From the IMG/VR virus record IMGVR_UViG_3300042901_002340: a stretch of DNA of 64,000 bases; one strand, written 5' to 3'. Made by a program: the position numbers and the translations under genes. The stretch is from a virus. Lineage: Duplodnaviria > Heunggongvirae > Uroviricota > Caudoviricetes. Position 1 is the stretch's first letter. Each line of letters opens with the position of its first letter. Positions 37,656-55,431 of the stretch are shown piece after piece. The notes beneath the pieces were generated by a model. It saw nothing but the letters and a program-made list of their open reading frames with translations, did no database searches and was not told the origin of the DNA.

Positions 37656-38294
37656 CTATTTTGCTCCCTTTTTTTTCGATATTTTTATCGATTCAACTTC
37701 ACCGACCGGATCAAATTTTATATATGATGTATATTTTTCATCCAGTTCTCTTTTTATACCTCTTCTATTTCTACTTACGTTTATTAAAGGGATCTCATAT
37801 TTACTAAAGAATACGCCATCAAAAACCCAAACCTTAATATTAAAATATTTATTCTCATATAAACCGTAATCTACTGAGCCAATCTTCAAAAAAAATCTAC
37901 ATTCGAATATATGTTTACCTCTAAGATACAATTCAATAAATATCCAATTATTATCGTGTGGCGAAGATAATATATTCTGTCCGAAATTAACGCAATATAT
38001 TATTTTTTTACTATCAAGATCCAAAATCTTATACTCCAATCCAGCCAAATCAAATATAGATTTTATCAGCTCTGGTATATCATCAGCTTCGCTATATAGA
38101 TTCAGAAAGCAACTAAGCTCGCCGGATTCAAATTTTTTCTGACTTTTGATTTCTACCTCGTCATCCTCCCTTACCAATGAAGAAAAATAATCCAGAGAAT
38201 CATGTAATAGATTTCTCTGGATTATTTCTATATTCTTCTGCTGATTTACTTTTTCTTTTACCGATTTTACAAAATCCTCGCTAGATTTTTTCAT
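37656..38294 (-). CDS. hypothetical protein
   Basis: Coupled to adk. Confidence 0.7.
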   Translation of the reverse strand: MKKSSEDFVKSVKEKVNQQKNIEIIQRNLLHDSLDYFSSLVREDDEVEIKSQKKFESGELSCFLNLYSEADDIPELIKSIFDLAGLEYKILDLDSKKIIYCVNFGQNILSSPHDNNWIFIELYLRGKHIFECRFFLKIGSVDYGLYENKYFNIKVWVFDGVFFSKYEIPLINVSRNRRGIKRELDEKYTSYIKFDPVGEVESIKISKKKGAK

Positions 38295-38949
38295 CCTTTT
38301 TCTTTTTAATCACCTTAAGTCCTAATTTTTTTACTATAGATTTAAGTACGCCTTCCATACCAAGATCAGCATCGATTTTTATTAATTTTCTACTCTTCTT
38401 GTAAAAATCGATAAGTGGAAATGTCTTCTCGTTGTATTCGGCAAATCTTTTATCTATAACTTCATCACTAGCATCATCTTTTCTATTCTCCTTTTTAGCT
38501 CTATTTCTTATTCTTTCCTTAGCCTTATCCTCGGGAAGATCCATAAAAATTGCATGATTTAAACCAAGACCCAACTTACCAAGTAAAGAATCAAGTTTTC
38601 TTGCTTGCTTTATAGTTCTAGGATAACCGTCAAAAATTATACCCTTATTCAGATCAAGTTTTTTAAGCTCTTTTCTAAGCATTTTAAGCATCATCTCATC
38701 AGAAATGAACTTTCCACCTTCAACTATTTTTTTTAATTCCGGATCATCAGACTTTCTTATCAAATCGCCAGTAGAAATATGATTAATACCAAATTTCTCA
38801 TTTAATTGCTTCGATAAAGTTCCTTTACCCGATCCAGGAGCTCCTAGCATAACTAGTACATCGCCTTGAGAATCGGGAAGCTCTCTTTCATTTAAGAATT
38901 CGTCGAATTTTTTTACAACTTCATCACTAAACCATTTTTTGTTCTCCAT
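38281..38949 (-). CDS. adk: adenylate kinase (short LID) with N-terminal extension
   Basis: GAPGSGKGT, HISTGDLIR, DGYPRT, RKDD. Confidence 0.93.
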   Translation of the reverse strand: MENKKWFSDEVVKKFDEFLNERELPDSQGDVLVMLGAPGSGKGTLSKQLNEKFGINHISTGDLIRKSDDPELKKIVEGGKFISDEMMLKMLRKELKKLDLNKGIIFDGYPRTIKQARKLDSLLGKLGLGLNHAIFMDLPEDKAKERIRNRAKKENRKDDASDEVIDKRFAEYNEKTFPLIDFYKKSRKLIKIDADLGMEGVLKSIVKKLGLKVIKKKKDEKI

Positions 38950-46228: not shown

Positions 46229-46254
46229 AAAAATCTCCAGATTGGGAGATTTTT
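46229..46254. terminator. rho-independent terminator
   Basis: AAAATCTCC-AGATTG-GGAGATTTT. Confidence 0.75.
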
Positions 46255-46726
46255 ATTTTTTCTTTTTCTTTCTATTTCTATCAACGAATTCCTTATATGA
46301 AATCATCTTCTTTTTGCCCTTTCCTTTTTTATTAGCTGCTCCCGTTCCAACAGTCAACGTGCTAAATTTGTCACCACTTCCGTTCTTTGAGTTATCATAG
46401 AAACCGGAATTTGTACCACCATTAGTAGGGGATATTGGATTTCCCATGCCACCAACATTATCTAGTGTTGCAAGTCCAGCGGCAGGAGGAGCCGATCCAC
46501 CATCCATATCCTCATCTAGTTTCTGTAAGGTAAACCCCTTGCCTTTAAGATAATCCTTTAGTTGCCATTTCTCAACACAGTAATCATTTTGGTCCAACCA
46601 ATTTTCTACACAATTACACGATTCATTACAATTACAACCATTAACGCAGGAGTCAATATTTTTTCTTTCATCTTCAATACAAACTAGATTTCTACCATTT
46701 GTACTATTACCTGTCGGATAAAACAT
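46253..46726 (-). CDS. hypothetical protein (Cys cluster, Gly-rich)
   Basis: C-terminal KMISYKEF motif. Confidence 0.7.
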   Translation of the reverse strand: MFYPTGNSTNGRNLVCIEDERKNIDSCVNGCNCNESCNCVENWLDQNDYCVEKWQLKDYLKGKGFTLQKLDEDMDGGSAPPAAGLATLDNVGGMGNPISPTNGGTNSGFYDNSKNGSGDKFSTLTVGTGAANKKGKGKKKMISYKEFVDRNRKKKKK

Positions 46727-47384: not shown

Positions 47385-47753
47385 CTATTTATCGGAAAGC
47401 CAGTCTCTATAATCTTTAAGATTCGATAGATTCTTTTTTCCTTTCTTTGTTTGTTTTGAATCTGGGTTCAAAAATGGAACTATCTTACCCGGTCCTTTAG
47501 GTTGAAATTTTGGCATTGCCGAAGATCCAATAGGTTCAAGACTAATCGGAAGATCTGCCTCATCAACATGATCCGGAAGTTTCTTATGTTTAGTCGAAGC
47601 ATAAGCTTTAAGTTCCTTCTCAGTCATACTCTTGGATAACTTAACTATTTCGTCTCTATATTTGGGATTAAGTTTGGATGGTGACAATTCACCGATCCTA
47701 ACTGCATATGCTTGTCCAAAAAGAGATTGTTGGGATTTACTAACCGCTGGCAT
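47385..47753 (-). CDS. DUF3008-like protein
   Basis: MPA.SK.QQ...G.A.A...GE; MTEKEL..YASTK.K.LP. Confidence 0.8.
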   Translation of the reverse strand: MPAVSKSQQSLFGQAYAVRIGELSPSKLNPKYRDEIVKLSKSMTEKELKAYASTKHKKLPDHVDEADLPISLEPIGSSAMPKFQPKGPGKIVPFLNPDSKQTKKGKKNLSNLKDYRDWLSDK

Positions 47754-48284: not shown

Positions 48285-48464
48285 TTATGCCGCTTTGTTT
48301 TTAGAATCCTGTACTTCGGTTCTTACTTCTTGTGCAAGTGCTTTTAATTCTTGCATAGCTTTTCTAACTCTAGTACCAGCTGCACTGTTACCTTTACTGA
48401 AGAATTTTTCAGCATCACCTTGTGTTTGCTCTAATAGAGCCTTGATTTGTTCGAATTTTTCCAT
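48285..48464 (-). CDS. histone H1-like protein (Hc1 family), 59 aa, missed by ORF track
   Basis: MEKFEQIKALLEQTQGDAEKFFSKGNSAAGTRVRKAMQELKALAQEVRTEVQDSKNKAA. Confidence 0.85.
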   Translation of the reverse strand: MEKFEQIKALLEQTQGDAEKFFSKGNSAAGTRVRKAMQELKALAQEVRTEVQDSKNKAA

Positions 48465-48517: not shown

Positions 48518-49063
48518 TTATCTACTTATAATTAATGATTTTTCACTTGAGCCAGTTTGAACCGACCAATTTTTGCCGAGTTGAGACACACATATCGACT
48601 TCATATACTCTATGTATTCACCCTTACCTTTATATTCCAAATTGTCTTGCAAATTATCATACATCCTTACAACCTTAGGATTGAAAGAAAGGTAATCCAG
48701 AACACATTTGAATATCTGCTCCATGAGTCTAGATAGCTCATTTCCATCAACAAGAAATTCAGAACTACTAACCGAAGGTATATCCTCCTTATCAACTGCT
48801 ATATCCTCTATAAGTTCATGGCCTATTTGGTTTATGTTAAGCACACAATAAGAATTTTTAGCACCCTCTATAGGCTCATTCTCAGAATATTTACCTATTA
48901 TAAGATGGTATCCCATTTCATGTTCCTCGTCTTCGCTATCAAGACTGAAGAAATAATGATATACATCACTTACTTTCTTCATCAGGAATGGTGATGTACC
49001 AAATCCGTCATTCTCATTAACCGGACTTGTAAATTGATCAAATGATGCAATAAACTTTTTCAT
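48518..49063 (-). CDS. putative head-internal protein
   Basis: MKKFIASFDQF...VNE. Confidence 0.7.
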   Translation of the reverse strand: MKKFIASFDQFTSPVNENDGFGTSPFLMKKVSDVYHYFFSLDSEDEEHEMGYHLIIGKYSENEPIEGAKNSYCVLNINQIGHELIEDIAVDKEDIPSVSSSEFLVDGNELSRLMEQIFKCVLDYLSFNPKVVRMYDNLQDNLEYKGKGEYIEYMKSICVSQLGKNWSVQTGSSEKSLIISR

Positions 49064-49065
49064 TT

Positions 49066-51099
49066 TTATTCTTGGTTATTTTTTTCCATTTCTTCATGAA
49101 TTTCAGATTCCGTTATAAGTTCCGAATTTTCAAATTCACCCTCGTCTTCCTCCTTAATTCCAGTACCTTTCTGTGCATCTATTAATGAATTATAAACATT
49201 GGCAACAGCCTGAGGTACAAGCTTTTTGAACCCAACATAATCTTCGGATTCTATTTTCTTTCTAACGTCACTACCACTCGACGATCTTTTAGTTTGTATT
49301 ATCTTTATATCTTCAGGGAAATCACCACCTGCCTTTTTGAGGTAGTCAGCTTGTTTATTGTAGTCCTCTATCCTATCGTCACCAGCCCCTATGGTTTTAG
49401 GAATAAATCCATGTTCCTTAGCCTTTCCGTATATAGGTCCAAGAAGACCCCTATTGACAACAAAATAACCAGAAATCTTTCCAGGATTATCTTTAACTAT
49501 TCCCTCCATATAGCGGGATATTAATTTCTCATCGTATGGGGATTTACCAGATTTATTATGTCCCGGATGAACTACAGCAATAATACTAGGCAGGTCATTC
49601 TCCTTGTATAACTGATCAACCATTTTTAAATGTCCATTATGAAAAGGTTGAAATCTACCAACAAGTAGATTAACAGGTTGGAGCTTTTTTTCTTCCTTGT
49701 CGCTGTCCTCGTTGATTTCTTTTGATTTATCTTTCTTGCTAGTGTCTATCGTTTCTAAAGCTGAAATAAATTCGTTGTAAGAATAAAAAGGATCGTCAGT
49801 ATCAGATTCCTCAGAATTATCAGATTCGCTAGTAACATAATCTATTTTCTTGGAAGATAGATTATTTTTCTTGAAATCCATAAATGATGGTATAGCTTCA
49901 GATTCCTGTATAGCGGGTTTGGTTTCCTTAGCAACAACTCTTTCTATATCGCTAACAACTATATTAAATTGATCTATTATACCAGAAGTTATTATTCCAC
50001 TGGCTCTTTTTCTTATCTTTCTAAATGAGTTAAGCATAAGTTTAAATAGGGACTCGTAGGAATCGTCGGTATCAAGATATTTAAGAACTCTTTTATCCTT
50101 TATCATATCAAGATTCAACCTAAATTCATCTTTCTTCAAGTAATCAGGCTCTTGAAAATCAGCTCCCCTGTATTTATAGGCATATTCACCTAGAAATTTA
50201 ACGAAAACGTCAGACATAAAAGAAATGTATCTCTCGTCGTCAGTATTACCCGAAACGTTAAACGACTCAACACCTTCCTCCAATATGAAATTCATAATAT
50301 CCATTATAGTAAGACCAAGAAAATCGCTAGGTTTTTCATCAGATCTTCTGCTATATTTTTCCTTTGCCATTTCCGTGAATACTGGATCCACCATCTTGGA
50401 TAATATTGGTTCCTTCCCATTATCTTCCTCACCGAATCTAAAAACTATTCCCTCTATCGGTTTATCAAGATCGTTATTAAGTGCACTAGTCTTAGCTTCT
50501 GGATTAAGAACACCAATTATGTACCTAACAAAACTTTTAGTTTTAAATTCGGAAACTAATTGATCAAAAGGAGTTCGAAGAAAATCGAGGATCTGATTTT
50601 TCTGATCCTCGGTTAGCATACCCTGGAATATTATGGGAGGTCTTTCAACACCAAGAATATCAGCCCAGTTATCAAGTTGTTCCTGATCCTGTATTGTCGA
50701 AGCTGGTTTACCATTTTCGTTTTTGGTGTGTATATATGAAAGTATCAGATTGTTCTTAGGCAATCTATCATAAGCAATCTCCACAGGTTGATTATTTGAA
50801 AAATACTCAAGACCGAATCTCCATCCTCTAGGAATCTCATTAAGTATATGCGGAGGAAGTGATTCTATATAATTTATAGGCTTCTCGTAATATTTCATAA
50901 GGGTACGATCAACAAGAGTTATTGGATATCTCTGATCTCTCTTATAAAAATTAAATCTACCAGTTTCTGAATTTCTTTCAAAAACAAAAGCAGAACCGTC
51001 CATTTTTTCATTAATGGTCACATAGGAGTTAAAGAGATTATCGATGAAATCCTTACCCTTTTTGTTATAAATATCATATAAATGACTAATCCCTGCCAT
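49066..51099 (-). CDS. fusion of an RNA-ligase-like nucleotidyltransferase and an HxGH cytidylyl/adenylyltransferase
   Basis: EKMDGS (motif I), GLEYF, EGIVFR (IV), SKMVD (V); C-terminal GRFQPFHNGH, GAGDDR, SGSDVR. Confidence 0.8.
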   Translation of the reverse strand: MAGISHLYDIYNKKGKDFIDNLFNSYVTINEKMDGSAFVFERNSETGRFNFYKRDQRYPITLVDRTLMKYYEKPINYIESLPPHILNEIPRGWRFGLEYFSNNQPVEIAYDRLPKNNLILSYIHTKNENGKPASTIQDQEQLDNWADILGVERPPIIFQGMLTEDQKNQILDFLRTPFDQLVSEFKTKSFVRYIIGVLNPEAKTSALNNDLDKPIEGIVFRFGEEDNGKEPILSKMVDPVFTEMAKEKYSRRSDEKPSDFLGLTIMDIMNFILEEGVESFNVSGNTDDERYISFMSDVFVKFLGEYAYKYRGADFQEPDYLKKDEFRLNLDMIKDKRVLKYLDTDDSYESLFKLMLNSFRKIRKRASGIITSGIIDQFNIVVSDIERVVAKETKPAIQESEAIPSFMDFKKNNLSSKKIDYVTSESDNSEESDTDDPFYSYNEFISALETIDTSKKDKSKEINEDSDKEEKKLQPVNLLVGRFQPFHNGHLKMVDQLYKENDLPSIIAVVHPGHNKSGKSPYDEKLISRYMEGIVKDNPGKISGYFVVNRGLLGPIYGKAKEHGFIPKTIGAGDDRIEDYNKQADYLKKAGGDFPEDIKIIQTKRSSSGSDVRKKIESEDYVGFKKLVPQAVANVYNSLIDAQKGTGIKEEDEGEFENSELITESEIHEEMEKNNQE

Positions 51100-51120
51100 A
51101 AGTAGCTTTTTTAATGTTTA

Positions 51121-52053
51121 TTATTGTATTCTGTTAATCTCTGTAGGTATTTCTAGTCCAACCCTCTGTAAAAATTCCACAAATCTTTCCTTTATTTCTG
51201 GTAATTTGTTTATAAGTTCAAACTCAGGAGAAGTTATTATTTTAAATAACTGTTCAAAAGTTTTAACATCATCAGTAGTATAACCTTTACCTAAAGCAAA
51301 ATCTATAAATTCCTGAGGATCATTAGTAACAAATCTTTCGCTTCCTTCTATTTTCTTAGGATTCTTTAATCTGTCTTTTATCTTCCCTCTGTAAGATTTT
51401 GTATGCCAATATAGACCATCGCTTAAAATAAGAACAGGTGTGTTATAATCCAAGACCTCACCAATTTCATTTCTCTCCATAATCTCCTTCCTTGCCGACA
51501 ATATCGCGGCTAGTAACCAGTTTCTATGTGCCGATTTATATTTACTTTCCCTCGTTTTGTAATTTGGTGAATAATATATAAAATCTGCCCATTTCATGTC
51601 TGACAGTGGTATAAGATCAAGTTGAACTAATCCATTATTCTTGTCACCATTTATTGGCCACCCCAGACTAACTATATTGAGACCCTTCAGATAATTTATC
51701 TCAGTAGTAAATCCAAGAATATCGCCAATACCATTTTTTATTTTATCGTAAATAAACCCAGAACATTCCTTTCTTTCTATCCCATTATCCAGAGAGTACC
51801 AAGTTGCATCATAACCAATATCCAAATCTCCCGATGTATCATCAGGATTTTCTTTCTTCCCTATGCTACCAATGATAACATACTGATCATTTATTTTGTT
51901 TGGGTCTATACCGATGAGAGGAAAAAGATTTTCCTGAATACTTTTTAGCGTTTCGGAAAATTCGTCCTCCCTTATTCTTCTAGAAGTTTTTATAGCTGCC
52001 CCTCCCTCGAATATTGAACTAAATCTAGCAAAATCGATAATCCTATTACTCAT
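51121..52053 (-). CDS. Pol-beta-superfamily nucleotidyltransferase
   Basis: IGSIGKK...SGDLDI and VQLDL third acidic residue. Confidence 0.75.
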   Translation of the reverse strand: MSNRIIDFARFSSIFEGGAAIKTSRRIREDEFSETLKSIQENLFPLIGIDPNKINDQYVIIGSIGKKENPDDTSGDLDIGYDATWYSLDNGIERKECSGFIYDKIKNGIGDILGFTTEINYLKGLNIVSLGWPINGDKNNGLVQLDLIPLSDMKWADFIYYSPNYKTRESKYKSAHRNWLLAAILSARKEIMERNEIGEVLDYNTPVLILSDGLYWHTKSYRGKIKDRLKNPKKIEGSERFVTNDPQEFIDFALGKGYTTDDVKTFEQLFKIITSPEFELINKLPEIKERFVEFLQRVGLEIPTEINRIQ

Positions 52054-52604
52054 TATCTTTTTTTCCTAGTTTTTTTATAATATGAATTCATTACATCCTT
52101 TAGATAATCTCTGTATATTTCCTCATCCTTGGATTTAGGATTTTGAGGTGAAAAATCATCACCAAAATATTTTTTACCTCTCAGAACACCAGACTTATAA
52201 AATTCCTCAGCATCCTGCTCAGTCACATTTTTATTCTCTATATGCTCAGCTTCCCATTTTTTAATAATCTCATCTTTTCTTCTTCTTATTTCGTCCTTGT
52301 CAAGATCCTTCCAAGATTTAGTATCTTCACCAGGGGAAAGAAAATCTATAAAGGAAGCAGTTCCTTTTGCAACAGCTCCTGTAACAACAGCAATTGCGCG
52401 GGAAGCACTTTTCATACTGGAAAGGTTAGGATCAGAATCGCTATAATAGCTGCTATATCCGCTATCACCAATACCTATCTGATTTCCAATTTTTCTAAGC
52501 CATCTTGTGAAAGATGTTTTTCCGTGAGCATCATAATATTCAGAATTTCCATATGATTCTTGGATATTAGATTTATTGAATTCATCAAAAGATTTTATAG
52601 TCAT
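52053..52604 (-). CDS. putative head-internal protein
   Basis: MTIKSFDEF...IQE. Confidence 0.7.
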   Translation of the reverse strand: MTIKSFDEFNKSNIQESYGNSEYYDAHGKTSFTRWLRKIGNQIGIGDSGYSSYYSDSDPNLSSMKSASRAIAVVTGAVAKGTASFIDFLSPGEDTKSWKDLDKDEIRRRKDEIIKKWEAEHIENKNVTEQDAEEFYKSGVLRGKKYFGDDFSPQNPKSKDEEIYRDYLKDVMNSYYKKTRKKR

Positions 52605-52621
52605 TAGTAAAAAATGTTTTT

Positions 52622-52631
52622 CTATATATCC
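52622..52631 (-). promoter_or_regulatory. putative late promoter GGATATATAG
   Basis: Recurrent motif heading the 52604-48518 operon. Confidence 0.6.
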
Positions 52632-52641
52632 TTAATATAAA

Positions 52642-53580
52642 TTAAAGTTTAACGTTGTATATCTTATATTCAAAACCTTCCTTCTTATAAATCTCTATTC
52701 TTTCGATGCTATGTTTAGCAAGATAGCTCTTATATTTTCTTGTACTAAAATCATCAACAAAATCTATGACATTAACCTTTTCCTTACCCTCCATCTTTCT
52801 CATTCCCCTACCCAAACTTTGTTTTATAAGGATTTCGCTCTTGTATGACTCGACAAGAAATATATTATGCAGATTGTTTATTGATATCCCAGTGGAGAAT
52901 GTTCCGTACGTCGCAATTAGGACCTTATTAGAGCCGATTGACATTCTTCTCTTATATTCCTCTCTCAAAGCCTCACTAGTGTCGCCATCAACATAAAACA
53001 CCTCTCTATCGCCATTTAATTCTCTGAGAAGATTCCATATCTGCTTACCGTACTCCTCCTTAACAGATTGGAATAAAACCAGGGAGTTTTTAGATGTCTT
53101 ATTTATGAATTCAGTAACATAATTCAGACGTTTTCTACTTTCAATAACTAACTTTCTTTCAAGATTATAAATCTCGTTACCTTCAACGTTATTATCACTA
53201 AGTTTAAGGTCGGCTAATTTTTCTTTATAGACAGGGTCTAACCAATCCATAGTAACTACCTTTATGGAAACAGGAGTTGCATACCCATTATCAAAAAGAA
53301 AACTGGGTGGGATCTCCATCACAAGGGGTCCAAGAAATTGTTGTATAGTCAAATAGTCAGCAGTTCCCTTTTTGGTCAGAGTTCCTGTTAATCCAAATCT
53401 CCATTTGGAATGCATACATTGGGAAACTATCTTCTTTATCGAGGTACTATTTGTATGATGACAATTACTAACAAGAATTCCATTAGCTATATAATTGTGA
53501 TTTAATCCATCATCCGATAATATCCTGAGATTGTATACATTATCCGATGTTTCTATTTTGCTAATTTTTTTTATCTTCAT
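52642..53580 (-). CDS. uvsW: UvsW-like SF2 helicase, C-terminal half, preceded by a C-intein
   Basis: 39-aa C-intein then CHH, GLTGT, ATYGTFSTGISI, QSLGRGMR, DFVDD. Confidence 0.9.
   Translation of the reverse strand: MKIKKISKIETSDNVYNLRILSDDGLNHNYIANGILVSNCHHTNSTSIKKIVSQCMHSKWRFGLTGTLTKKGTADYLTIQQFLGPLVMEIPPSFLFDNGYATPVSIKVVTMDWLDPVYKEKLADLKLSDNNVEGNEIYNLERKLVIESRKRLNYVTEFINKTSKNSLVLFQSVKEEYGKQIWNLLRELNGDREVFYVDGDTSEALREEYKRRMSIGSNKVLIATYGTFSTGISINNLHNIFLVESYKSEILIKQSLGRGMRKMEGKEKVNVIDFVDDFSTRKYKSYLAKHSIERIEIYKKEGFEYKIYNVKL
53464..53580 (-). mobile_element. split intein, C-fragment (39 aa)
   Basis: MKIKKISKI...VYNL.I....HNYIANGILVSN|C. Confidence 0.92.
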
Positions 53581-54397
53581 AATTTTTTATTTTTATAGCT
53601 TTTTCAATTCTGTTAGCTATTTTATCAGATTCTGGTTGTCCATTCAATAAATCCCTTCTATAATTAGCGGAAATCCAATTCTCGTCTATATAGTTGAATT
53701 TATACCCGTTTATTTTACACCATTCGTCTGCTGCATACATCTTATCTAAACAATCCTCCTTCTTATTACGTGGCTTAATCTCATATATTATTTTTTTATC
53801 CATATCACAAAAATCTACTATATAATTGCGTAATTTATTCTTTTTTGAATCAAGGTACTCTATTCTTATGTTCTCATATAGAAAATCGGGATTTATAATA
53901 TAAAATAAAGCTTCCCATGAGGATCTAACTTTAACTATTTTATTTTTTATTAGTACTTCTATTTTTCCACCATAGAGAGAATTATTTACACCAGGCGTAA
54001 AGATCCCACATTTTATTTTCTTTCTAACAATTGAGGATAATTTAATTTTCATTGAATTTTTACTCTCATCCGTCATTCTATGCGACGTGTTATTTAATTT
54101 CTGTTTTTCAGAAAAATCCGCATCCGCACAATTTCTGCAACAGAAATCATTAAGAATCCACTTTCTTCCTGATTTTATTTTTTTTTTATTTTTACATCCA
54201 TTAAATTTGCATATACCATTATCAGGATCACAATAGATTAATAGATCATATAATGTTTCGATGTAATAGGGAATGTCAAATAGATTTGTATTTTTGACAT
54301 TAGTAACAATCCTAGTATTAAAATCAGGGATTTCCCTAACTTTTAATATGGAGAGTCTTCTTGAATTTTCATAAAGATACAGATAAAGTGGATTCAT
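53561..54397 (-). CDS. free-standing putative homing endonuclease (TnsA/PD-(D/E)xK-like, Cys-rich N-terminus)
   Basis: RSSWE...YE...IEY......Y..DF......EIKP; lies between the two intein halves. Confidence 0.8.
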   Translation of the reverse strand: MNPLYLYLYENSRRLSILKVREIPDFNTRIVTNVKNTNLFDIPYYIETLYDLLIYCDPDNGICKFNGCKNKKKIKSGRKWILNDFCCRNCADADFSEKQKLNNTSHRMTDESKNSMKIKLSSIVRKKIKCGIFTPGVNNSLYGGKIEVLIKNKIVKVRSSWEALFYIINPDFLYENIRIEYLDSKKNKLRNYIVDFCDMDKKIIYEIKPRNKKEDCLDKMYAADEWCKINGYKFNYIDENWISANYRRDLLNGQPESDKIANRIEKAIKIKNYEDKKN

Positions 54398-54420
54398 ATG
54401 TTTGTATGATGAGGTTTGTT

Positions 54421-55431
54421 TTATATATCAAAAAGCTCATCGTAATAATTAAGAGCATCGACTCTTTTCCATTCACCATTTTTTAATTTAACCTTATGAT
54501 TTCCGGTTACCTTAAGAATCTTTCCACATTCTGTCTCTATCTTGTACATTTGTTTATCTTTATTTAGATTTTTATATACAAATTCCACGGTTCTTTTCTC
54601 CTGCCCATTAGTAATATCGTTAATAGTTAATACGGAATCTCCAATATTAACATCAGATATTTTTTTATAACCGCCATCAGCCATACTTACCAATGAATCC
54701 GGAGATAAACACTCATCTATAAATACGCAATCAACCTCGTCAAAAAAATCAGATTCTCTTTTAACCAGGGATTGGTATGTACCTATTATTATATCGCAGC
54801 CATCCTTGATCTTACTTCCACCACCTATCTGCTGAATCTTCACACCGTCTAATTTATCAAGTCCATATTCCTCAAAATCATCATTACCCTGGAATACAAG
54901 ATTGGAATTGGGTACGATCATAAGGATCTTTCTTACCATTCCTTTTGATTTTAGATATGCAAATATCATAAACGATATAAGTGTCTTACCTGATGAGGTT
55001 GCAACCTCAGAAACTGAATACCTATACCTCAATATCTTCCATGCGGTCTCTATTTGGTAATCTCTAGGCATCTTATCTGGATTACCACCTATACCCCCCT
55101 CGAAAAATTCATTAACCCACTGAGTAAATTCATCAAGCTTAACGTCGTCAGTTACGACGCTGTTTAATCCTTCTATTTTTATATCAATTCTGTATTTCTC
55201 GCCGATATCCAATAATTCCCTCCAGAGACCTATTGGAACTTTCCAGAATCCACCTCTCTTCTCTATGAAACATATAGATCCATCCCAAATCTTTTTCTTG
55301 ACTAGAGGATGGAAAAAATGATTATGTATTTTTTGAGTCAGCGAGATCTCGACTTGCTTTTTCTCAACCTCATCAAGTGCTTCCAAGAGAAGCATCCATT
55401 GATGATCATCAGTTACTCTAAATTTTAACAT
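54421..55431 (-). CDS. uvsW: UvsW-like SF2 helicase, N-terminal half, followed by an N-intein
   Basis: WDG.I, RDYQ, ATSSGKT, TYQSL, FIDE then intein. Confidence 0.9.
   Translation of the reverse strand: MLKFRVTDDHQWMLLLEALDEVEKKQVEISLTQKIHNHFFHPLVKKKIWDGSICFIEKRGGFWKVPIGLWRELLDIGEKYRIDIKIEGLNSVVTDDVKLDEFTQWVNEFFEGGIGGNPDKMPRDYQIETAWKILRYRYSVSEVATSSGKTLISFMIFAYLKSKGMVRKILMIVPNSNLVFQGNDDFEEYGLDKLDGVKIQQIGGGSKIKDGCDIIIGTYQSLVKRESDFFDEVDCVFIDECLSPDSLVSMADGGYKKISDVNIGDSVLTINDITNGQEKRTVEFVYKNLNKDKQMYKIETECGKILKVTGNHKVKLKNGEWKRVDALNYYDELFDI
54424..54711 (-). mobile_element. split intein, N-fragment (96 aa)
   Basis: CLSPDSLV.MADG..KKI.DV.IGD.V; block B VTGNHKV; ends at a stop codon. Confidence 0.92.

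Follow-up and report, generated by a model that had tools for sequence, protein, structure and literature searches.

In phages, a Pol-beta nucleotidyltransferase, a KxDG ligase and an HxGH adenylyltransferase were shown by sequence comparison, on the evidence of gene order and natural fusions, to be evolutionarily linked. In the phage analysed here (genome 430 kb, Bacteroidota-like hosts) the three are encoded in a four-gene operon that is transcribed late. The reading tentatively preferred, with considerable doubt remaining, is that the operon encodes a fill-and-seal repair and NAD+ kit that would be made late, packaged in the head after tagging, freed of its tags by a gp21-like protease and injected.

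Operon layout, late promoter and linkage in relatives

All four genes are located on the minus strand of the window, that is, of the whole 64,000-nucleotide stretch analysed. Gene A (52053..52604, minus strand; 183 aa) is fast-evolving and has a basic C-terminal tail; gene B (51121..52053, minus strand; 310 aa) encodes a Pol-beta superfamily nucleotidyltransferase with family-X-like palm and thumb; gene C (49066..51099, minus strand; 677 aa) combines a ligase-like module, an acidic linker, an HxGH domain and an acidic tail; and gene D (48518..49063, minus strand; 181 aa) encodes a tag followed by a conserved DGFGT motif. The intergenic gaps A/B, B/C and C/D are -1, 21 and 2 nt, and no terminator-like site was found on the minus strand within the A–D cluster. 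Gene A had no match in Pfam, PHROG, NCBIfam or Atlas, and gene D none in Pfam, NCBIfam, Atlas or PDB profiles.

A single GATATATA box (52623..52630, minus strand) lies 18 nt upstream of the gene A ATG, in agreement with the original prediction of four co-oriented genes behind one promoter. Within the window the motif is weakly enriched (15 copies vs 7.4 expected); across the genome no other upstream 8-mer is more strongly enriched, 68 of 93 copies lying at most 70 nt before an ORF (15-fold), and elsewhere in the genome it heads genes for tail sheath, portal, head-closure, tail-fibre-like and prohead protease proteins. It is also present upstream of all distinct gene A homologue N-termini listed (46 variants). 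On the basis of its genome-wide upstream enrichment and its position before the sheath, portal and protease genes, GATATATA is the late promoter motif of this phage, as had been predicted, and the A–D operon is late-transcribed.

The order A-B-C-D was found in about 60 of 80 IMG/VR loci, and the three domain types (B-type nucleotidyltransferase, ligase and HxGH) occur together as an operon in about 60 related phage contigs and in two natural polyproteins. One of these (P0124, 1802 aa) is arranged B-ligase-HxGH-B-Nudix-B and has hydrophobic-x-E before GG ahead of each of its three B copies; the other (P0155) is arranged HxGH-B-DUF6267, with a KxDG motif in the DUF6267 part. Ligase-like and B genes overlap in Agrobacterium phage Atu_ph07 and Sinorhizobium phage Phosso. 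The gene-neighbourhood check proposed with the original prediction, comprising operon order, natural fusions and the ligase/B pair in distant jumbo phages, therefore points to a functional linkage of the three domains.

Nucleotidyl-transfer domains of genes B and C

The catalytic motif of B, GS-x12-DxD (residues 62–78; 51820..51870, minus strand), is joined by a third carboxylate, D146; an alignment of 65 sequences shows at least 90% conservation at each of the positions S63, D76, D78 and D146, so that the Asp triad is complete. The Pol-beta palm fold is present, palm and thumb resemble those of family X polymerases, the 8-kDa and fingers domains are absent, and the family to which B belongs has no Pfam model. 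B is thus a Pol-beta fold enzyme, as claimed, closest to family X polymerases; its enzymatic activity is predicted. Assignment of B to RlaP (PF10127) was rejected, as neither B nor 65 of its relatives gave a match at E 0.1, and RlaP was not found in this genome.

The ligase-like module of C (residues 1–399; 49903..51099, minus strand) has motifs I (EKMDGS, K32), III (FGLEYF, E98), IV (EGIVF, E216) and V (SKMVDP, K235) and a helical C-terminal part. All examined C homologues of at least 50% identity (55 of 57) retain motif I and its lysine, and motifs III–V do not vary in a 25-sequence alignment reaching down to about 66% identity. PF09414 scored 23.5–26 bits, below the cut-off of 27, and matched 19 of 24 C homologues (best E 1e-6, sub-threshold scores). 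RNA_ligase was the sole family matched; DNA ligase models gave no match, nor did a comparison of the module with PDB sequences. Alignment with the ligase-like protein of Atu_ph07 by hhalign gave an E value of 9e-5, and AF2 modelled the module with low reliability (pLDDT below 50). N, Q or D stands in place of the catalytic lysine in a sister clade of 35% identity and in stand-alone homologues; LR756500-type fused homologues and the stand-alone homologues of LR745206, LR756501 and LR756504 have lost the lysine and other motif residues but are still conserved as proteins. Assignment of the N-terminal part of C as a KxDG ligase-like module and putative divergent RNA_ligase member is supported at the level of sequence. 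The covalent-lysine ligase that had been predicted is accordingly retained for C as a candidate, on the strength of KxDG, motifs III–V and the sub-threshold PF09414 score, but does not extend to the 35%-identity clade.

An acidic linker (residues 400–473; 49681..49902, minus strand), which starts just after IQE|S and contains two conserved tag-like islands, is followed by the HxGH (HIGH superfamily) adenylyltransferase domain (residues 474–649; 49153..49680, minus strand), which resembles NMNAT and PPAT, and by an acidic tail after a semi-conserved IKE (residues 650–677 and stop; 49066..49152, minus strand) that is absent in some clades. The HxGH motif (HNGH) is invariant, as are R605, S608 and R613, and a second, ISxTxxR-like motif is present. 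The Rossmannoid fold claimed for this domain was recovered by PF01467 (24.5–27 bits, cut-off 21), TIGR00125 (31.7, cut-off 27.7) and an AF2 model (pLDDT 75–87) with Foldseek matches to PPAT, NadD and NMNAT (E 1e-6, TM 0.6–0.7). By fold, PPAT, NadD and NMNAT are equally near; the best sequence matches are archaeal NMNAT and NadM. By score, a NadM/archaeal NMNAT equivalog was rejected (PRK01153 38 vs 127; TIGR01527 30.7 vs 181), and only the first ~45 residues align in these comparisons. The genome encodes a NadV-like phosphoribosyltransferase (PF04095, 553 aa, 85 bits), 297 kb from C, and C carries its only PF01467 domain; in phages NadM is reported to co-occur strictly with NadV (PMC9503650). 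A role in NAD metabolism is plausible for the HxGH domain, with NMN the most likely substrate and NAD+ the most likely product. Of the predicted restoration of NAD+, the NadV-like gene and the sole HxGH domain in C speak in favour, while the NMNAT equivalog cut-offs were missed.

Tags and predicted cleavage sites

Residues 1–11 of A, B and D contain hydrophobic-xx-[FY]-xx-[FYW], and each tag then ends in hydrophobic-x-E, the predicted cut site: IQE16 in A, IFE16 in B and VNE17 in D. The predicted propeptide of A (residues 1–16, ending IQE; 52557..52604, minus strand) resembles the T4 capsid-targeting sequence (CTS), MKTYQEFIAE, which receives one cut by the head protease (PMC8442874; PMC3012670). 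That of B (residues 1–16, ending IFE before GG; 52006..52053, minus strand) is disordered in the AF2 model; across the 65-member family alignment the tag ends in hydrophobic-x-E directly before a conserved GGxA, and the homologues P0152, P0163, P0170, P0186, Atu_ph07 and Phosso begin exactly at GG, directly after the Glu position. Tags and cut sites are kept in homologues of A, B and D, the remainder of A falling to 25% identity. As the B orthologues of Atu_ph07, Phosso and Lak phages are without a tag, B-type enzymes need not be virion-borne.

Genome-wide, the tag motif was found in 78 of 669 ORFs vs ~19 expected (binomial 1.6e-25), the tagged share being put at roughly 40–78 ORFs (about 8–12%), and it is associated with GATATATA (25/69 vs 56/600; Fisher 2e-8). 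Other tagged proteins are SLT, CHAP, glucosaminidase and Tlde1 cell-wall enzymes, which are typical virion cargo, an adenylate kinase and an AAA_33 kinase. In this phage, whose head assembly is of the T4 type, a gp21-type prohead protease gene (PF03420, 34 bits) adjoins a gp23-type capsid gene (PF07068, 137 bits). Some tag-like motifs are C-terminal, and others lie within conserved regions of ligase-like proteins that stand alone.

All four genes had been described as tagged, which holds at the N-terminus for A, B and D; C has no N-terminal tag, and conserved tag-like islands are present in its linker instead. The proposed internal tag of C, IPSFMDF, is conserved, but the segment is shared by stand-alone ligase-like homologues and may therefore be part of the ligase module itself and not the remnant of a leader. 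Among the five (I/L)xE sites listed for C, IQE397–399, in an otherwise variable linker, is kept in 51 of 57 homologues (Ser is next in 50) and IKE648–650 in 35 of 57; INE, ITE and IHE showed no conservation among the 57. In two relatives C and D are naturally fused and the tag and cut site of D are kept internally. Together with the conserved IQE|S, these fusions lend support to the idea that C may be a polyprotein.

Proposed function, alternatives and known systems

Because the enzymes are tagged and late, the kit is probably injected together with the phage DNA. The tags would dock the proteins to the prohead scaffolding core and be removed by the gp21-like protease, which would also cut C after E399, and possibly after E650, so separating the ligase from the adenylyltransferase. 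Once mature, the enzymes would exit the capsid with the DNA and could for this reason act before any phage gene expression. B would then extend or fill a recessed 3'-OH end, the ligase module of C would seal the 3'-OH/5'-phosphate break, and the HxGH domain would convert NMN from the NadV-like enzyme into NAD+, countering NAD+ depletion. This fill-and-seal scheme is modelled by analogy on the RNA ligase and RlaP pair of other jumbo phages. As substrate, breaks in RNA (tRNA) are rated slightly ahead of nicks or gaps in the incoming phage DNA; against mass cleavage of tRNA, however, a few tens of enzyme copies per virion would have little effect. The resealing of anticodon-nuclease breaks, as originally predicted, was not supported, since such breaks need end healing and no end-healing kinase or phosphatase domain is encoded in the operon. 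Also counting against the kit are the missing N-terminal tag of C and the fact that a canonical RNA ligase, as well as an ATP-dependent DNA ligase, is already encoded elsewhere in this genome.

The packaged enzymes might instead act on the phage's own DNA, repairing nicks, gaps and abasic-site breaks in the 430-kb genome on entry, with the HxGH domain supplying NAD+ or another adenylylated cofactor. African swine fever virus has a comparable base-excision repair set of PolX and ligase. One DNA molecule would need few packaged enzymes, a gene for an HhH-GPD glycosylase is found 2.3 kb downstream of the operon, and helicase or primase genes adjoin the module in this phage and in Atu_ph07; but the glycosylase carries no tag, the ligase module matches RNA_ligase alone and none of the DNA ligase models, B is without 8-kDa and fingers domains, and a DNA ligase is already encoded elsewhere in the genome. 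Repair of the phage's own DNA appears unlikely. Somewhat less probable again is that the enzymes stay outside the head, in which case the N-terminal peptide would be a generic late-protein feature (for example an A/T-rich start aiding translation in a host that lacks Shine-Dalgarno sites) or a helix that docks to some other assembly, and the operon would act late in the cytoplasm, for example in tidying replicated DNA before packaging or in RNA repair. Consistent with this are the occurrence of the motif on about 8–12% of ORFs, a large share for cargo, the untagged orthologues, the C-terminal and internal tag-like motifs, and the operon neighbours, which are replication genes rather than structural genes and count against packaging. 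Yet the motif has the spacing of the T4 CTS and its end follows the T4 protease rule, homologues begin exactly after the Glu, the same tag is found on cell-wall hydrolases, the cut motif is repeated before each domain in polyproteins, and the phage encodes a matching protease.

That the ligase-like module is a nucleic-acid-end binding or structural domain, leaving only B and the HxGH domain enzymatic, would account for its sub-threshold Pfam score and for the loss of lysine and motif residues in the LR756500-type and stand-alone homologues, in which the proteins are conserved; it is improbable in view of the motif I lysine, intact at 50% identity or more (55/57), and of motifs III–V, invariant in the 25-sequence alignment. 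Highly improbable, finally, is a two-enzyme, lysine-independent ligation machine formed by the ligase–HxGH fusion. The NMNAT-like domain would directly adenylylate a 5'-phosphate nucleic-acid end, by the same chemistry as NMN + ATP -> NAD+, and the ligase-like domain would then seal it; retention of the fusion in the clade lacking the ligase lysine but having (T/H)xGH would thereby be explained.

Among the systems closest to the proposed packaged kit is that of T4, with the CTS on IPI-III (and the Alt propeptide) removed by gp21: both have a short N-terminal amphipathic peptide, two aromatics three apart and an (L/I)-x-E end. As for the T4 internal proteins, a gp21-family protease is encoded beside a gp23-type capsid gene, the promoter is late, and the cargo is variable and unrelated. 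In contrast to T4, more genes are tagged here (roughly 40–78 of 669), the predicted cargo consists of nucleotidyl-transfer enzymes, one protein is an apparent polyprotein with internal sites, and tag-like motifs are also C-terminal. The RNA ligase and RlaP pair of bacteria and jumbo phages, for which replacement of missing 3' nucleotides followed by sealing is predicted (PMC12776372; PMC7824862), likewise couples a Pol-beta nucleotidyltransferase genetically to an RNA-ligase-family enzyme; here, by contrast, B has a family X-like fold and no PF10127 match, the ligase is divergent, sub-threshold and fused to an HxGH domain, and capsid tags are present. With phage salvage by NadV (Nampt) and NadM (HIGH adenylyltransferase-Nudix) or NadR, the operon shares the NadV-like gene and the sole HIGH domain in C, and the relative P0124 also has a Nudix domain; C differs in having no Nudix or kinase partner, in its ligase fusion and late promoter, and in its distance of 297 kb from the NadV-like gene.

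Polyvalent proteins of phages and conjugative elements are enzyme arrays predicted to be packaged, peptidase-processed and delivered with DNA; in the parts of the survey consulted, the domains listed include Pol-beta nucleotidyltransferases, RNA ligases are said never to be seen with the 2H phosphoesterase domains of these proteins, and the ligase–HxGH combination was not found (Iyer, Burroughs, Anand, de Souza and Aravind 2017, PMC5512222). P0124 fits the multi-domain array pattern, whereas in the phage analysed here the array is mostly split into separate tagged genes, and processing is assigned to a T4-type head protease at hydrophobic-x-E and not to embedded peptidases. The RNA ligase and RlaP pair, NadV/NadM salvage and T4 internal proteins are known kinds of system; the new element is the cargo, namely tagged nucleotidyl-transfer enzymes.

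Operon layout, late promoter and probable host

Genes A (183 aa, 52604–52053), B (310 aa, 52053–51121), C (677 aa, 51099–49066) and D (181 aa, 49063–48518) occupy 52604–48518 on the minus strand. The arrangement proposed in the original prediction, one promoter heading four co-oriented late genes, was confirmed by the intergenic gaps of −1 (A–B), 21 (B–C) and 2 nt (C–D), by the finding of no minus-strand terminator-like sites inside A–D, and by the 8-nt motif GATATATA placed 18 nt ahead of the A start codon. Enrichment of GATATATA was weak within the window (15 copies versus 7.4); genome-wide it was the most enriched upstream 8-mer, with 68/93 copies at most 70 nt before a correctly oriented ORF and a spacing of 14–30 nt in 48 of the 69 ORFs preceded by it. 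Because of this genome-wide enrichment and the structural and protease genes located downstream (tail sheath, portal, head-closure, tail-fibre-like and prohead protease), GATATATA was assigned as a late, virion-class promoter motif. Eleven copies lie just 4 nt before an ATG, and all of these genes start with MK(R/I/N)IKTF or similar (for example, positions 100584–101210, 104366–105475, 106843–107478, 171806–172198 and 174343–174921 of the whole phage genome, G000:C1); mRNAs from these copies would be nearly leaderless, and promoter and tag seem to move together as a cassette.

The window corresponds to bases 351430–415429, read on the reverse strand, of a virus record that measures 430,120 bp and has direct terminal repeats; contigs carrying relatives of gene C were as long as 434 kb. 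No matches to the operon region were obtained by blastn against cultured and deposited phages. The genome carries a T4-type head module, in which a 654-aa ORF with a Peptidase_S77 (gp21-like) domain is directly followed by a gp23-type major capsid gene. A second upstream motif enriched genome-wide, TAtaTTTGca (TATATTTGCA), fits the −7 box (TAnnTTTG) of promoters in Bacteroidota and suggests host-sigma early promoters; together with the G+C content of 34% and an Hc1 histone-like gene, it points to a Bacteroidota host. This Hc1 gene (48285–48464, minus strand; 59-aa histone H1-like protein, PF07432, 90 bits) follows D at a distance of 53 nt, shares its orientation and is not separated from it by a terminator; its product is a phage-borne DNA compactor, and the gene possibly belongs to the A–D late transcript. 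Directly upstream of the operon (52642–55431, minus strand) a helicase is split over ORFs, with ResIII/DEAD and Hint ending one ORF, Helicase_C in another and a TnsA-like endonuclease ORF in between; a GATATATA copy at 54422–54429 overlaps the stop of the first of these helicase ORFs.

Capsid tags and predicted processing

The T4 capsid-targeting sequence MKTYQEFIAE loads whatever protein it is joined to, and the head protease cuts it a single time (PMC8442874; PMC3012670). Genes A, B and D start with hydrophobic-xx-F-xx-F followed by candidate cut-site triplets (IQE at A 14–16, IFE at B 14–16, VNE at D 15–17). Genome-wide, the motif was present within the first 10 residues of 78/669 ORFs versus ~19 expected from the internal rate, and a stricter form was associated with GATATATA (25/69 versus 56/600 ORFs, p = 2e-8). 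The strongest evidence for the putative tags is comparative. Sixty-five B-family proteins, retrieved by searching 1.8 billion cluster representatives, were aligned and showed a variable leader that always closes with hydrophobic-x-E directly before a conserved GGxA, and several family members have their start methionine exactly at the GG, as do the homologues of the distant phages Atu_ph07 (Agrobacterium) and Phosso (Sinorhizobium). Likewise, A keeps tag and promoter in related phages in which its identity has fallen to 25%, and D homologues retain hydrophobic-x-E ahead of a conserved DGFGT. For A and D themselves, ESM Atlas gave no usable matches, and a profile search of D against PDB sequences returned chance-level rows only.

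The same tag was found on the SLT, CHAP, glucosaminidase and Tlde1-like cell-wall enzymes of the genome, which are classical virion cargo, and on an adenylate kinase (38281–38949, minus strand), a 159-aa AAA_33 P-loop kinase (G000:C1:151175–151654), a RimK-like ATP-grasp enzyme and a ferritin-like protein. The AAA_33 family includes polynucleotide-kinase-type kinases, and the two tagged kinases could give the cargo set end phosphorylation and AMP recycling. Tag-like motifs were also seen at the C-termini of a DUF3008 protein (47385–47753, minus strand) and a 157-aa protein (46253–46726, minus strand); the DUF3008 homologue in the related locus LR756500 (L003:7266–7649) likewise ends in a clear tag-like sequence, and the tag may be functional at either protein end.

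All four genes had been described as tagged; this held for the N-termini of A, B and D, and C carries instead a conserved internal IPSFMDF island. The island, proposed to be an internal tag, is shared with stand-alone ligase-like homologues and therefore may be part of the ligase module. Of the five internal (I/L)xE sites proposed for C, two were conserved and the remaining three were not: IQE397–399, at the start of the otherwise variable acidic linker, was present in 51/57 homologues (Ser next in 50), and IKE648–650 in 35/57. C and D form a single ORF in two relatives, with the tag and cut site of D kept internally. The metagenomic relative P0124 (1802 aa, domain order B, KxDG ligase, HxGH, B, Nudix, B) is tagged at its N-terminus and carries hydrophobic-x-E|GG ahead of each of its three B copies. 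The conserved IQE site, the C–D fusions and the P0124 motifs support a predicted polyprotein processing. Cleavage at the predicted sites would leave A starting at S17, B at G17 and D at N18, and would release C fragments of residues 1–399 and about 400/450–650. Polyvalent proteins are the published concept for packaged arrays of many enzymes (PMC5512222).

Enzyme folds of B and C

B had no match among Pfam, PHROG and NCBIfam models, and its family comprised 513 cluster representatives at E ≤ 0.001 (309 at E ≤ 1e-10). The expected Pol-beta fold was borne out by residues S63, D76, D78 and D146 (each at least 90% conserved), by an AF2 model that was confident except for the leader (pLDDT 94), and by Foldseek matches that were weak and all from the Pol-beta superfamily; the best BFVD match was an uncharacterised Atu_ph07 protein. 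B therefore belongs to an undescribed Pol-beta family that shows features of family X, and it looks active. Identification of B as RlaP was rejected, as it had no RlaP match and none was found in the whole genome. RlaP is reported to accompany RNA ligases in jumbo phages and to put back lost 3′ nucleotides ahead of ligation (PMC7824862; PMC12776372), and since the genome has none, B may stand in for it.

Residues 26–225 of C matched RNA_ligase (PF09414) slightly under the cut-off, as did 19/24 diverse homologues. Across 25 aligned sequences, the most distant at 66% identity, motifs I (K32), III, IV and V were invariant; motif I including its lysine was kept in every homologue at least 50% identical to C. 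The KxDG ligase assignment thus stood as regards the presence and conservation of its motifs; the PF09414 score remained below the cut-off, and AF2 modelling of whole C, for which the alignment was shallow (25 sequences of at least 66% identity), yielded nothing usable for residues 1–470. Profile search of the module against PDB sequences returned only rows at chance level, and hhalign found no similarity to the canonical RNA ligase (84 bits) that the phage also encodes. The possibility that C is the phage's replicative DNA ligase was rejected, as a canonical ATP-dependent DNA ligase (PF01068) is encoded elsewhere in the genome; given both canonical enzymes, C is neither the replicative ligase nor the sole RNA ligase of the phage. 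N, Q or D takes the place of the lysine in a clade of 35% identity and in the ligase-like proteins that stand alone in three huge-phage records. In this sister clade (loci L003 = LR756500.1, L086 and L089) the C homologue has N or Q for the ligase lysine and TxGH for HxGH; A, B and D were undetectable by tblastn, and tagged genes flank the C homologue at positions as in the A–D operon.

The predicted HxGH Rossmannoid was established with confidence at C 474–649 by PF01467 and TIGR00125 above cut-offs and by Foldseek (E 1e-6: PPAT, NadD, NMNAT). Top sequence matches were archaeal NMNAT and NadM, covering approximately the first 45 residues only and far under equivalog cut-offs. The ligase–HxGH fusion is old: homologues with as little as 35% identity still carry it at full length. 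When HxGH relatives standing alone were searched for, most hits were fragments of this fusion at contig ends. NadM is reported always to co-occur with NadV (PMC9503650). The genome encodes a NadV-like phosphoribosyltransferase and no HxGH protein other than C, so that this domain is the sole candidate partner for NadV in the genome.

Linkage of the three enzyme types and implications

The A–B–C–D order was kept in ~60/80 IMG/VR loci, with a few lacking B or A, and the neighbourhood check thus bore out co-conservation. In the natural polyprotein P0155 the order is (T)xGH domain, B, DUF6267. DUF6267 (P0155 residues 530–897) contains KxDG, EG-hydrophobic and VK-x-VD motifs, because of which it resembles a ligase family that has escaped recognition; no mention of it was found in the literature searched. 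LR756500 carries, upstream of the C homologue, a tagged 421-aa protein (L003:3704–4969) with motifs akin to DUF6267 and no Pfam match. Atu_ph07 and Phosso each have a B gene that is untagged and overlaps the end of a ligase-like gene, whose product contains EKLDGS; the Atu_ph07 pair lies downstream of a primase/helicase gene, and its ligase-like protein matched the C ligase module by hhalign (E 9e-5). The pairing is not universal, because the B gene of a Lak phage is untagged and has no adjoining ligase. No biochemical study of a module of Pol-beta nucleotidyltransferase, KxDG ligase and HxGH domain was found in the literature.

Comparative sequence data give good support to late expression of the operon, to its T4-type tags and to a functional link among the enzymes; packaging, cleavage and all enzyme activities are what we infer from them. 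The operon observation was confirmed and its interpretation partly supported, with no support for a role in nucleotide signals. What is new is the cargo module, not the tag: a large unannotated Pol-beta family, a recurrent three-domain module and explicit predicted cleavage sites are defined here. If the reading is true, a widespread group of 400-kb environmental phages would deliver catalytically active nucleic-acid repair and NAD-related enzymes alongside their DNA, and these would therefore be in place before any phage gene expression; the T4 internal-protein idea would then take in repair enzymes besides inhibitors and ADP-ribosyltransferases.
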